Source: Myxococcales bacterium (GTDB lineage Bacteria; Myxococcota_A; Polyangia; Polyangiales; DASUME01). Taken from it: a DNA stretch of 64,000 bases. The notes under the pieces are model-generated. The model was not told the DNA's origin. It searched no databases and saw only the letters and a list, made by a program, of their open reading frames with translations. Position numbers and translations under genes: made by a program. This document shows, in pieces, positions 48,901-56,643 of the stretch (within the stretch, counting starts at the first letter, position 1; every line of letters starts with the position of its first letter). The stretch spans positions 8,096,001 to 8,160,000 of the forward strand of contig JASGJH010000001.1 in NCBI GenBank assembly GCA_047601445.1, read 5' to 3'.

Positions 48901-51268
48901 GCTCGTCGCGAGCGTCCTCGGCCCGCATGTCCATCGTGAGTCCCTGGTCGACCAGCTCGTTTCCGAGCATGTCGGCCTCGAGCGCCGCGTTCTTGGCGAG
49001 CTGCAGGTAGTAGGCCCAGCTTTCCTCGATGGTGTTGCTGCCGTTGACGCCCTGCGCCTGGAGCAGCTCGTCTTCCAAGCCGACCTTGATATTGCGCGGC
49101 AAGCCGCCTTTGCCGCAGAGGGCCGCCGTTTCATCGGGAGCCAGCGGGTCCACCCCCAGGGTGTTCTGGAGTGCTTCCGAAAGCCCTGAGCTGATTGGCA
49201 CGTAGAAGCCCCGTTCAGGTCCAGGGCCAGGGCTGTACTGAGCCCTAAATCCTGCAAGGAGAACCCTCAATGCGTTTCCTGTGCCAGTTTCCGTTGTGGG
49301 CAGGGTCTTCGTCACATAGACACGCGGTTCGTCGGTGAGCACGAAGCCCGCAGGAGCGTTGGCCGCGCCGGCAATCAGATATGGATACTTGAGGTCATTG
49401 ATGGTAGTGGTCGTGTCTTGGCCGTAGGCTTCGCCGAAACGGAACAGCGACTCGTTGCAAGCGGCTCCGCTGCCGTCGACGCCGCGCAGCGCACACAAGA
49501 GCCCCTCCTCTCCCAGCCACATGTCGTAGCGCGCCATGTAATCGGCAATATCGGCCGTGGTGGTCGGAGGTACCGTGCCGTGCTCGATGATTCGCACGCG
49601 AACTGGAGAGGTGGGGCCTGGCGTCTTACCAATGTAAATGCGGCCTCCAACGTAGTGTGATGCGAACCCGTCCGCTGACGCCAGCGCGCGCTTGGTTACG
49701 GTCGATAAGTCCGTTCGCGTGGCAATTCGCGGATAGGCACTTCGATACCATTCCAAAGCGTGAAAGATGCCGCGGCGCGCATAGGCAACGTCGCCCCCAC
49801 CGCTCTGCGCGCTGGTATCCAGGTTCGGAAGCTCGGCCGTCTCCGTCGTGGCGAATAGGTACCAGGGATTAGCTGGCTCGGATGTTTTCTCGAAGCCAGA
49901 CACCCGCTTGAGCTGCAGGCCAGATTGTCCAGCCGGCGGATACTTGGCGAGCTCAAGGTACCCACGAACCGGTCGGCCCAGCACCGACGCTGCCTGCGTC
50001 AGTCGATTCGCGGCACGGATCAGGTCCTCCGTCTTGATGCCCTGGGAGGCCGCCAGAAACTCGATCCCGTGCCCCAGGGAGGACTCGAATGCGCCCTGGT
50101 TGTCCTCGTTGACGGAAGCGATGATGTCGTTGGCGACGTCATCCACCGTTCGCGTCGAGCCGATGCGCGGGTCCACACGATGCTGACGCAGCAAATTCTC
50201 GGCCAGGCGATCGGCATCCGTCGTCGCCAGAGAGCTAACGACCGGATAGGTTCCTTCAGCGGTGACCGAGTCGCCCGACGCCGACATGGTGTCGTAGAGC
50301 GCCCCAGGCACCTTGACGTACGCACTCGCCGCACGAAGCAGCGAGTCGTAGGGATGCCGCCACGCCGTCTTGCGGGCTTTGCTGCGGTCGCCTGTAGTGG
50401 CTTGAGCCGCCTGAGCAGACGCATGAAGGTGCTTGGCGGCCTTCTCCGCTGCTTCCACCACGCCTGAGGCGGACTCTAGAAGATTCGCCGAGTACTGATC
50501 CGCGATGTCGAGGGTTGCAACGACGGTCGTACTGCCTTGGCGGACGAAATCATGCTTGAACGCGGTGTCACCACAGTTGGCGAACACGTTCGTGCCAATC
50601 TGAACGGCCTCACGGAACGCGTCGGCCGCCAAAAGGGCCCACGAGGCTCGATCCGAAGGCTTCGGTGGAGCAATGGTGAAGCTCAGGTTCCCCGTCGGCC
50701 GTGAGGTCGAGATGGCGGACGAGCCTGCGCTCACGTAGATGGTCGAGGCGGCGTCTGCGATGGTCATCGCCTTGTGACCCATGCAGGTGTAAAAGAACAC
50801 GCCGCCCGGGCCGACTTCGGCACTGCTGGCCGTGAGGGGACCCGGTGGGAGCGACAGCTGTGCGCACTGGTCAGCTACCGGGTTCGCAACCATGGTCAGG
50901 TTCGAGGTGTCCCCAATCTGTTGAGCCGCAACGCTCAGCACCAAACCAAGAGTTTCCCAGCCGCACGCGTCGCGGATAGCGCCGAGAAGCTCGTTGTATG
51001 TCTTGCTGCCGTCGGTACCTGCGGTCACCAAGCGCACGTCGTTCTTCGGCTGACCAGGCGTGTTGGTCTCGCCGCTGACGGTCCAAGGCGTATACGAGAT
51101 CGTCCGATCTTCGATGAGCGGCAACGCGCCTCCGTGGACCTCCTGATCCTCGTCGTCGTCATAGTTCGTTGGCCCGGCTGGCGCGTTTGAATCGCAGCCA
51201 GCGGCAGCAAGCATCGTGAGTCCGGCAAGGAGCTGCCAGACGCCTCGGGAAGACGCGGATTTGGACAT
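42971..51268 (-). CDS. Giant lipoprotein (2765 aa), putative TcA-like pore/translocation subunit with inserted LamG-like domains
   Basis: Lipobox LAAAGC; long helical hairpin ending YERARDYAVRMAYLARRSIEQKIG; C-terminal RWEQVAVNAVG and EFVGRPIEGNYTLRI...LEDIQLALHYRY resemble the TcA TcB-binding domain; directly upstream of the TcB/C fusion. The ORF is clear; the TcA assignment is inference. Confidence 0.65.
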   Translation of the reverse strand: MSKSASSRGVWQLLAGLTMLAAAGCDSNAPAGPTNYDDDEDQEVHGGALPLIEDRTISYTPWTVSGETNTPGQPKNDVRLVTAGTDGSKTYNELLGAIRDACGWETLGLVLSVAAQQIGDTSNLTMVANPVADQCAQLSLPPGPLTASSAEVGPGGVFFYTCMGHKAMTIADAASTIYVSAGSSAISTSRPTGNLSFTIAPPKPSDRASWALLAADAFREAVQIGTNVFANCGDTAFKHDFVRQGSTTVVATLDIADQYSANLLESASGVVEAAEKAAKHLHASAQAAQATTGDRSKARKTAWRHPYDSLLRAASAYVKVPGALYDTMSASGDSVTAEGTYPVVSSLATTDADRLAENLLRQHRVDPRIGSTRTVDDVANDIIASVNEDNQGAFESSLGHGIEFLAASQGIKTEDLIRAANRLTQAASVLGRPVRGYLELAKYPPAGQSGLQLKRVSGFEKTSEPANPWYLFATTETAELPNLDTSAQSGGGDVAYARRGIFHALEWYRSAYPRIATRTDLSTVTKRALASADGFASHYVGGRIYIGKTPGPTSPVRVRIIEHGTVPPTTTADIADYMARYDMWLGEEGLLCALRGVDGSGAACNESLFRFGEAYGQDTTTTINDLKYPYLIAGAANAPAGFVLTDEPRVYVTKTLPTTETGTGNALRVLLAGFRAQYSPGPGPERGFYVPISSGLSEALQNTLGVDPLAPDETAALCGKGGLPRNIKVGLEDELLQAQGVNGSNTIEESWAYYLQLAKNAALEADMLGNELVDQGLTMDMRAEDARDELEDLCGGVVNVADLRDQACAMSNCDLVKYLDPKGNTDGKTNEAVAQLRECLGIETDTVREAVLGSNPVCVWQMKPHLPCQCPGPNDLDHASYQSCPGREYASDEAWVSDSGPLPSMACAVPVTNPKIRRDEDCRELYVPLSDGSYAYPDTVSFHFLDHELGLVPKLKPGGDGTTSQSPCKALAQARDGQLTAEQLNELLSDGRLGWSRKSLGEVAKRLSVDRDDLNFVKIKRDDVTWLSTGKSSSQNDPNPWLAKSSFPCAAMAGMGCKTDQVNKSLLCSMSCNSGQTDAQMANGREAVGERLAMATEVMRALSGAGMQGIDVVFSPNFDIDRNGYRPWALFQKGVNEDPWGYLNSSETSGPAKLKTVGLHTLQTREISFSNLASCDVAAWFSPGANHDLGSKQYCEGRLALYLSSSDYENIGPDPWPYIFRESKILTTGATVRRDGTRIVKTLETELKNTKKATGICLLAEGSTHPFPPRGSGIGAGRPYDCDGNVLSNAPQDQDPTKHLWRMDAGDIDSWPRESGADLTNFWATTIRSLLEGALRDQKGLDWNLEYGARYLDDRAVQTSLGIQRSWPLLSSYTVDQMLDALELACIADTTNTTLNQQQLTGGLDIGGYEDLARARLALEARANQMEQTARGVVLSDFPESLQTQLKNKGVANIYPSFGAAYAQTVNRLYGALQGVASTLVSAAGEARAAGYALESVQSQLREADYRKESNAEAALRDIGVLQDQCTAGMNRAIMGLAAASAAALGMNSYYNPGQTTQGFISATADLNAAQSLCSSNHAQQTSTLALSRLANAQVNEQTKQIISDAAQAMVTRQTTIENTWSSLLTGLGDAQAALADLAAQRSAARRAAAKVLMLDNDDMGHQFNVNTTMRARFNTLRVRYERARDYAVRMAYLARRSIEQKIGLELNTLGEDVGWVPAPQGWADKICSLSGIDYKKIRDAKAQEADQQNSGEDYTYADEYVGDYVKRLEEFITAYQNTYSSHDGEDTVVVSVRDELLGLRNNACEVSGCNELLQTVASMESSPLGSEEDDPRPQSLLEQVWDRTCTDDGRCAQRTTVPDDVPFVAFGKDALGHVVPASDTVPPQDSPSWGGLTNIVKAVRLTSSLAGATSSGGTVAPAATVPVPTAPPAVQTAWYRADQCTETAQGSNAIASCTDLSGNNRPATVNVPANAHWIASGIGGKKTIEMANALMAPATNATATDRYTISGVYRQASGITAVFASYGTANGVNQQTTVNVQFSSADVLWASVSAMNDASGASTLPNTVLYGGLPRAPENRSEVAFIFTLVADGPNGTRLYVNGHLNTGSRLPVPPVLLPSRIFYPLNGASGQWAETVAYSRPLNDAELQQLHGYLAGRYGLDINQPYGWIEGDDLQRANSNGGASAVSGFSGNTNLVFDRILGRRYGAFGAGAAATAPNGLVPIVTAPATHYGLHFEGDDSVLLYLYGSQCDRPNGGTTCVTAGSDAPTDWMFTIAGKVETDGGHTLFSSNMIGGNTASLDVNSVAGSVGVTLRDQQGNVTTVSTPNNQVHTNQVFAVSMRASRATGRLELFVNGKKGATLPWYANLTAYQYLGTNSYGGRLKGSIGDYMFHERPVSDAEILQLHQTLATKYGIQLAPVSADPQALANQKPEYRQYVNLASGKYLLSWYERTDGAVGGAALTPHVVTASGTDVPCTTGGTLHTGDERWLAPGWVRSWVTCNVGGGDHWVGWKLPSTTDRPEGVLFAAPQLELVDSTDSSVGPKAFFPTDDDFYAPIGVCEDRGGEKFRATSWQSGCEVYCPPSLGLNCATLASDTSKLPQRCYHELKFSISQEAIEKGKLIPQGGFAAGNFNYRWEQVAVNAVGTAVKNCESSEVASACYANNFLQYSLRHDGPFVVRNYLGREYEAPLFPGRIQQGKALLAERYLTNPMSGADRTLLQDFWDYEFVGRPIEGNYTLRIYGTEADGLDWEKLEDIQLALHYRYWTRLQ

Positions 51269-56643: not shown

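Follow-up and report, generated by a model that had tools for sequence, protein, structure and literature searches.

What is a domain of some 600 residues and no recognised family doing at the head of a TcA-like lipoprotein, and why should the lipoprotein encoded beside it carry two more copies? The question is raised by a locus of a Myxococcales bacterium, within a 64,000-nucleotide stretch (GenBank assembly GCA_047601445.1, contig JASGJH010000001.1, positions 8,096,001 to 8,160,000) that we call the window. Three long open reading frames (ORFs) lie there on the minus strand, at 58278-51592 (2,228 aa), 51268-42971 (2,765 aa) and 42904-34880 (2,674 aa). The second encodes the TcA-like lipoprotein A, with one copy of the domain, which we name X; the first includes an accessory lipoprotein B with two copies, B1 and B2; and the third encodes BC, a fusion of the Tc (toxin complex) components TcB and TcC. 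Our verdict is that the system is a Tc variant with an undescribed domain.

A first-pass annotation of the letters alone had aligned three copies of X by eye and placed them in no family, and both observations hold up. BLASTP aligns A with B1 at 25.4% identity over 492 columns (E 3.2e-18), A with B2 at 24.9% over 334 columns (E 1.3e-11), and B1 with B2 at 25.2% over 413 columns (E 2.8e-19). The corresponding local alignment scores are 202, 142 and 205, compared with maxima of 62, 74 and 79 among 300 shuffles per pair (z 26, 15 and 21). All 15 collinear motif strings, five per copy, were found in order in two minus-strand ORFs, and the three coordinate pairs given with them (49748-49783, 55255-55290 and 53530-53565) are exact. 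No Pfam or NCBIfam profile matches X at E 0.1 and none in PHROGs at E 0.01; the PDB sequences hold no match and the ESM Atlas no usable one. The AlphaFold2 model of copy A, built from a 31-row alignment (predicted local distance difference test score, pLDDT, 79.8; predicted template modelling score, pTM, 0.85), has a helical body (model residues ∼42-492) that is followed by a beta subdomain (495-648) and a final, closing helix. Foldseek finds no fold match for it in the PDB (best E 0.059), and VIA-align against 48,161 chains reaches at best Z 7.9 over 114 residues, with 7.2 in a second look. Viral structure models contain no match, and no TcA chain is among the matches listed in three PDB structure searches. 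Because matches to single domains may escape such searches beyond 400 residues and the model has 663, we go no further than to call X, on this model, likely a new fold.

In 64 distinct copies of X (97 before duplicate removal), six cysteines, Ser309 and small residues do not vary; this suits an extracytoplasmic structural domain stabilised by disulfides rather than an enzyme. The latter candidate was rejected, as most of the invariant positions are Cys, Ala or Gly and they form no catalytic set. The X copies of two paralogous A genes (L004:9978-12425 and L005:8438-10885) contain a 125-aa insertion at one site, which we take to be like a DUF5648-type beta-trefoil repeat; the one copy scanned has no Pfam match.

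To which protein does X belong in the first place? The A family comprises lipoproteins of 2,000-2,900 aa with X at the N-terminus. X opens every full-length A protein examined, directly behind the lipoprotein signal, and the N-terminal regions of these proteins link into one homologous X family. X is primarily the N-terminal domain of the A subunit. The first-pass annotation had also described A as TcA-like, and this is borne out in the C-terminal part, at the level of structure and with a modelled relative as stand-in. Because the tail of the window's A is too long to fold, we modelled the 813-aa tail of a relative that is 38% identical in the alignment (pLDDT 79.2, pTM 0.52). Foldseek ranks 1-12 for this model are all TcA structures (best E 1.4e-5). 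VIA-align lays model residues 78-810 in order onto TcdA1 2059-2516 with Z up to 10.8, and the TcB-binding part, residues 369-810, onto TcdA1 2327-2516 with Z 8.8 and a root-mean-square deviation (rmsd) of 4.3 for 150/179 residues. Residues 395-600 form an inserted module of carbohydrate-binding type, with Z 12.1 to a phage baseplate/tail-fibre chain, 9-9.5 to carbohydrate-binding modules and, overall, 9-12 to CBM4-type folds; a Pfam scan gives Laminin_G_3 below cut-off in two of 22 proteins. The tip of the hairpin is rich in Ala and Gly and is flanked by two cysteines in most of 23 rows. As in a Tc toxin, then, the A subunit is predicted from structure to end in a pore hairpin and a TcB-binding domain. 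The TcA domain order set out in the structural description of PMC11435725 is shell, linker, pore and TcB-binding domain, and X occupies the place where the TcA shell begins. We consider it very probable that a TcA-like subunit has X as its N-terminal domain.

The neighbouring gene has the composition expected of a TcB and a TcC in one chain. BC of the window matches SpvB (8e-31), TcdB_toxin_midN (2e-19) and FG-GAP in Pfam, with TcdB_toxin_midC not matched, and RHS TIGR03696 in NCBIfam (1.5e-12). On the TcC side it has an RHS core, a DxxG motif and a variable tip; the cleavage motif, DPxG at about residue 2376, lacks the upstream Pro of PxxxxDxxG. Read by eye, the start of BC resembles a signal peptide, both in the window and in several relatives. 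The tips differ among relatives. In a Pfam scan of 13, Peptidase_M91 and DUF3990 were above cut-off, WHH nuclease and lysozyme/pesticin were below it, one tip gave coiled-coil noise only and eight gave nothing. The window's own tip matches PDB entry 8QJC, the toxin domain of an Rhs protein that belongs to a type VI secretion system (T6SS), over 103 residues with E 1.4e-29, as well as 34 database proteins, many of them annotated RHS. In the part of their preprint that treats this domain, the authors of 8QJC predict an RNase fold and state that an immunity protein was needed for its expression (bioRxiv 10.1101/2024.02.26.582050). A 105-aa ORF follows BC in the window, and its ESM Atlas look-alikes are, by their automatic names, a DUF3630 cluster (0.92, TM 0.88) and a CdiI immunity protein cluster (feature score 0.91, TM 0.82); its product is a predicted immunity protein. 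Of 13 other BC genes, 10 are by our own reading followed by a short and tightly coupled ORF, three of these ORFs being lipoprotein-like. The T6SS-Rhs-like tip together with the CdiI-like gene makes a bacterial target likely, unlike in classical Tc systems, and an antibacterial role is probable. At another locus (L086:11143-12800) a lysozyme/pesticin-like tip is followed by a lipoprotein-like ORF, a pattern expected of a periplasm-acting toxin with its immunity protein.

The association of X with such genes extends well beyond the window. An X profile recovered 483 clusters at 50% identity from 1.84 billion representatives (E ≤0.001). Among the best 150 of these, 119 consist of X and tail (A type), 10 of X and the accessory domain (B type, three apparently from this same genome) and 21 stop short or fall in neither class; a loose, uncontrolled lipobox pattern precedes X in 105 of the 120 N-complete proteins of that set. 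The classifiable hits show only two architectures, both tied to TcB-RHS loci, a point in support of the first-pass annotation. A 31-row X profile has a match in 61 of 401 genomes of the order and a 63-row profile in 16 of 401 genomes of the phylum, 14 of those in this order; both profiles include sequences from some of the scanned genomes, and three candidates were scored per genome. A genome scan with the A alignment gave 28 loci, among them loci of Polyangiales, Polyangiaceae, Myxococcales, Myxococcota, Kofleriaceae and two deltaproteobacteria. A is longest in this genus, at 2,670-2,870 aa, compared with ∼2,000-2,300 aa elsewhere. We examined the surroundings of 36 loci chosen by their A gene (22+3+11), leaving out short fragments, two X hits at contig ends and overlapping fetches. 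A genes adjoin secreted TcB-RHS fusions with variable tips, a BC gene being present in 24 of the 36, and 10 of the 12 loci without one have at most 3.1 kb of downstream sequence visible. An accessory gene is present in 15, plus one seen with a longer flank, and often stands between A and BC. When the B alignment was used to scan metagenomes, a common cysteine repeat dominated the hits; X was present in 0 of 80 loci and an A tail with accessory in one of 80. A plasmid search with the C-terminus of A gave no match.

The genome of the window (9.5 Mb) itself has X at three distinct loci, the window's and those at 5.71-5.74 and 9.45-9.47 Mb, each with A, BC and B in a different order. A fourth candidate at 0.12-0.14 Mb was rejected as a duplicate, since it matches part of the 9.46 Mb locus at 99.7% identity across 13.4 kb (G000:C1 ∼123600-137000 and 9455900-9469300). 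Close to either contig end, flanking ORFs have, by eye, a taxonomically foreign appearance (planctomycete-like near 0.10-0.11 Mb), and with the duplication this suggests that the assembly may be chimeric near the contig ends.

Is this, then, an antibacterial Tc-like injector? Several observations weigh against it. A and its profiles show no sequence similarity to TcA among PDB sequences or in Pfam, the PDB returning only generic coiled coils. The structural match of the tail model is modest, with TM 0.14-0.19 and a whole-model rmsd above 50 Å, which we put down to a different arrangement of the domains in the monomer model, and its Z-scores of 8.8-10.8 fall in a band also reached by generic helical hairpins. 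None of 11 candidate immunity proteins matches a Pfam immunity family, and two of the 36 loci have 5.8-10 kb of downstream sequence without BC, with almost no upstream sequence visible. One might accordingly suppose that the likeness to TcA amounts to a long hairpin and a beta-sandwich, or that the targets are eukaryotic prey such as fungi or protists. Besides the missing homology and the middling Z-scores, this would agree with LamG-like and carbohydrate-binding inserts that could bind eukaryotic glycans, with the Peptidase_M91 effector domain at one tip, and with the eukaryotic targets that the Tc passages of PMC7861908 give for classical Tc toxins. However, the likeness of A to TcA draws less on the Z-scores, middling by themselves, than on two independent pointers, TcA structures heading the Foldseek list over the first 12 ranks and a TcB-like partner gene next door. 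The WHH nuclease-like and lysozyme/pesticin-like tips (weak, below cut-off) and the lipoprotein-like ORF behind the lysozyme-like tip also speak against it, and we consider this alternative very improbable.

Set beside known systems, the injector reading places the locus closest to the Tc (ABC) toxins, such as Photorhabdus TcdA1-TcdB2-TccC3 (4O9Y, 5LKI, 6H6E, 6L7I), with which it shares a predicted pore hairpin followed by a TcB-binding domain, and a partner with SpvB, midN propeller, RHS core, DPxG site and variable tip. In contrast to these, A is a lipoprotein with an unmatched N-terminal X and conserved cysteines, its binding modules are inserted in the TcB-binding domain and not in the shell, BC forms a single chain whose start resembles a signal peptide, and the locus has a third, accessory lipoprotein gene and a candidate immunity gene after BC. 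Where Song et al. 2021 discuss Tc loci, no immunity genes are found in them and Tc toxins are taken to target eukaryotes (PMC7861908); this trait of a classical, eukaryote-directed locus does not apply here, as the CdiI-like 105-aa ORF is present. The section of Zhang et al. 2012 on a 'TcdB/TcaC' class (PMC3482391) describes proteins with signal peptide, SpvB, integrin-like propeller, RHS and variable tip, accompanied by immunity genes and including delta-proteobacteria, and the window's BC, a single chain that combines signal peptide (by eye), SpvB, propeller, RHS and toxin tip, fits that class. No TcA-like or lipoprotein partner is described in that section, to which A, B and X are here added. 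The Salmonella bongori T6SS Rhs toxin domain of 8QJC resembles the window's tip, as a predicted RNase with a cognate immunity protein, but is delivered by PAAR and the T6SS, whereas here the tip belongs to a TcB-type cocoon beside a TcA-like gene. Lipoprotein-anchored delivery of polymorphic toxins in Myxococcota has parallels in SitA toxins and bacterial teneurin-like proteins, as outlined in parts of PMC10433427 and PMC13018210; those are single-chain systems with no TcA-like channel subunit, and we saw no sequence link to X, although none was specifically sought. In the full-text literature we found no description of X, the A family or a lipoprotein TcA; supplements were outside that search, and those of Zhang et al. 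could hold such neighbourhoods.

We turn to the copies in B. The 'upstream lipoprotein' of the first-pass annotation is a real X-X lipoprotein, but it has no ORF of its own here and corresponds to residues 546-2228 of the 2,228-aa frame (58278-51592). The accessory gene usually lacks X and encodes a lipoprotein signal, cysteine-rich or FG-GAP repeats and a common C-terminal beta-repeat domain. Full X-X versions occur in four of 10 genomes of the genus and in a few database proteins; a further accessory lipoprotein, P0022 (2,535 aa), has three tandem X copies before the accessory domain. In a tree of X with Shimodaira-Hasegawa-type supports (no bootstrap; P0022 left out), B1 (7 rows) and B2 (8 rows) each form a clade with 100% support and are sisters at 97%, and the joint clade is nested inside an A subfamily (100%) that holds the window's A, this subfamily being as far as the tree narrows the donor. 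Sister clades in such a position fit a single capture from an A gene and one later tandem duplication, before the split of the paralogous loci, so that X in B appears on phylogenetic grounds to be lineage-specific. B1 and B2 keep all six cysteines of X. Their within-group mean identity is 37-38% in both cases, and each has its own invariant residues.

Why would B have taken up a domain of its partner? Docking of B on A through X is an answer that we favour tentatively, at somewhat less than an even chance; the first-pass annotation had likewise proposed a homotypic assembly module by which the accessory would co-oligomerise with, cap or tether the TcA-like subunit. Docking is in keeping with the neighbourhoods, where five of the six distinct B genes with visible flanks adjoin a BC gene. 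A precedent for accessory docking is YenTc of Yersinia entomophaga, whose accessory proteins Chi1 and Chi2 sit on the TcA shell according to the YenTc account in PMC11435725; those chitinases, however, share no domain with TcA, whereas here the accessory carries A's own domain and is lipid-anchored. Three observations count against docking. Most accessory lipoproteins have no X, which therefore is dispensable for the accessory's basic job. Arg432 occurs in 98% of 49 A copies but in none of the 15 B copies, which means that B has lost one A-specific contact or more. For an orphan X-X accessory (L191, 2427-7514), 2.4 kb of upstream and 8.3 kb of downstream sequence contain neither an A nor a BC gene. 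A test for complementary faces gave no signal: B1 retains 25 of the 58 columns conserved in the nearest A subfamily and B2 35, and by a count by hand they share 17, where ∼15 are expected.

The same observations can be read with the injector intact and the copies in B as captured, stable spacers that raise its C-terminal domain off the membrane to the height of this lineage's longer A without binding it. Accessories that work without X have other N-terminal modules (FG-GAP, cysteine-rich repeats) in its place, the number of X copies varies between 0, 2 and 3, the A proteins of this genus are the longest, and Arg432 is lost. A spacer has no need to come from the partner gene, though, nor does it account for B1 and B2 each keeping invariants of their own or for B staying in the locus through three gene orders, and we judge it unlikely. 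Loss of an A-invariant residue by tandem copies that keep the fold is also what a mimic would look like, and with three distinct loci in the genome, each with its own B, the X pair could be a cap or decoy that silences the producer's injector or spoils a rival's assembly. Yet B keeps an accessory domain conserved across the order, which suggests a positive role, and systems without X in B would have no such cap; this explanation is improbable.

As for the mechanism, we think it most likely that Sec exports A, B and BC, that A and B are lipidated and that A oligomerises around its helical hairpins to form a channel of the TcA type, in which X would be the outer domain nearest the membrane. The BC cocoon would dock on the TcB-binding domain of A, and its tip, cut at the DPxG site, would be threaded through the channel into a neighbouring bacterium while the small downstream protein protects the producer. 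Contact between X domains, the least certain step, would put the adhesin-like C-terminal domain of the accessory on the particle, as with Chi1/Chi2 on the Yersinia TcA shell. This whole reading, in which X stands in for part of the TcA shell and for the anchor of an antibacterial Tc-like injector and B docks via captured X, falls just short of an even chance in our estimate. Its sharpest form is possible but clearly more doubtful: a Tc branch exported by Sec and lipid-anchored, with a new-fold X shell, antibacterial toxins and immunity genes, whose adhesin copied X twice to clip into the ring. Since X lies directly behind the lipobox in both A and B, it might instead be an export or escort domain that routes a lipoprotein to the surface, vesicles or outer-membrane exchange, with B taking the same route. 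Surface display, vesicles and outer-membrane exchange are described for myxobacteria in the pages of PMC10433427 on these routes, as are the N-terminal escort domains of the SitA lipoprotein toxins. A routing signal would need no two or three tandem copies, and X-free accessories are lipoproteins too, which leaves this quite unlikely.

If the injector reading is true, a Tc that is lipid-anchored, exported by Sec, fitted with bacterial-type tips and accompanied by candidate immunity genes would bring the Tc mechanism into conflicts among bacteria, and would provide a delivery partner for the signal-peptide SpvB-RHS toxins, catalogued since 2012 (in the class description of PMC3482391) without one. 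The A/X family escapes Pfam and TcA-based sequence searches despite its 483 clusters at 50% identity, and X is a large, confidently modelled domain without a fold match. The positions of the features are collected in Table 1.

Table 1. Features of the X-bearing locus, in window coordinates
Feature	Position	Strand	Remarks
Gene A, 2,765 aa	42971..51268	-	Lipoprotein signal (Cys25), X, middle region, TcA-like tail
Domain X, copy A	49145..51133	-	A residues 46-708; helical body and C-terminal beta subdomain, six conserved cysteines
Domain X, copy B1	54784..56478	-	First in accessory lipoprotein; ends approximate
Domain X, copy B2	52948..54699	-	Second, tandem; ends approximate
Predicted long helical hairpin of A	46169..47143	-	Aligned with TcA pore-forming domain in relative; Ala/Gly-rich tip between two cysteines; ends approximate
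Predicted TcB-binding-like domain of A	42974..46168	-	Split by insert; from stand-in model of relative
Insert modules in TcB-binding-like domain of A	∼44024-45481 (LamG-like); ∼43589-44011 (carbohydrate-binding-like)	-	
Gene B, accessory lipoprotein, ∼1,683 aa	51592..56643	-	Signal peptide and lipobox (56587-56643), X, X, cysteine-rich repeat, C-terminal domain
C-terminal beta-repeat domain of B, ∼380 aa	51595-52710	-	Putative propeller
Trypsin-family protease	56644..58278	-	Cysteine-rich repeats, C-terminal membrane anchor; in frame with B, probably separate gene
BC, TcB-TcC fusion, 2,674 aa	34880..42904	-	Signal-peptide-like N-terminus, SpvB, FG-GAP, TcdB_toxin_midN, RHS core, DPxG, variable tip
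Toxin domain at BC tip	34886..35194	-	8QJC-like (T6SS Rhs, predicted RNase)
Candidate immunity gene, 105 aa	34559..34876	-	CdiI-like by Atlas look-alikes; starts 3 nt past BC stop

The frame that includes B begins with a trypsin-family protease (Pfam 8.6e-26), which is joined at residue 546 to a second signal peptide with lipobox. The protease ends in a hydrophobic anchor and an arginine tail, which we take to be MYXO-CTERM-like, with no match in NCBIfam. The full-length relatives of B, of ∼1,680-1,715 aa, are separate proteins without a protease, a stop codon overlaps a start codon in another frame at the junction near 56643, and the paralogous loci of this assembly have many frameshifts; for these reasons the fusion is likely a single-base assembly error. 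Trypsin-like genes also lie near the related loci L044 and L078. A tRNA-Ala gene (34263-34336, plus strand) lies a short way past the candidate immunity gene, and the G+C content across the locus (34001-52000) is 0.60-0.645, compared with 0.645-0.70 elsewhere in the window, which is island-like. Upstream of the locus, 59296-61725 on the minus strand encodes a beta-lactamase-family domain fused to a NamZ exo-beta-N-acetylmuramidase (peptidoglycan recycling).

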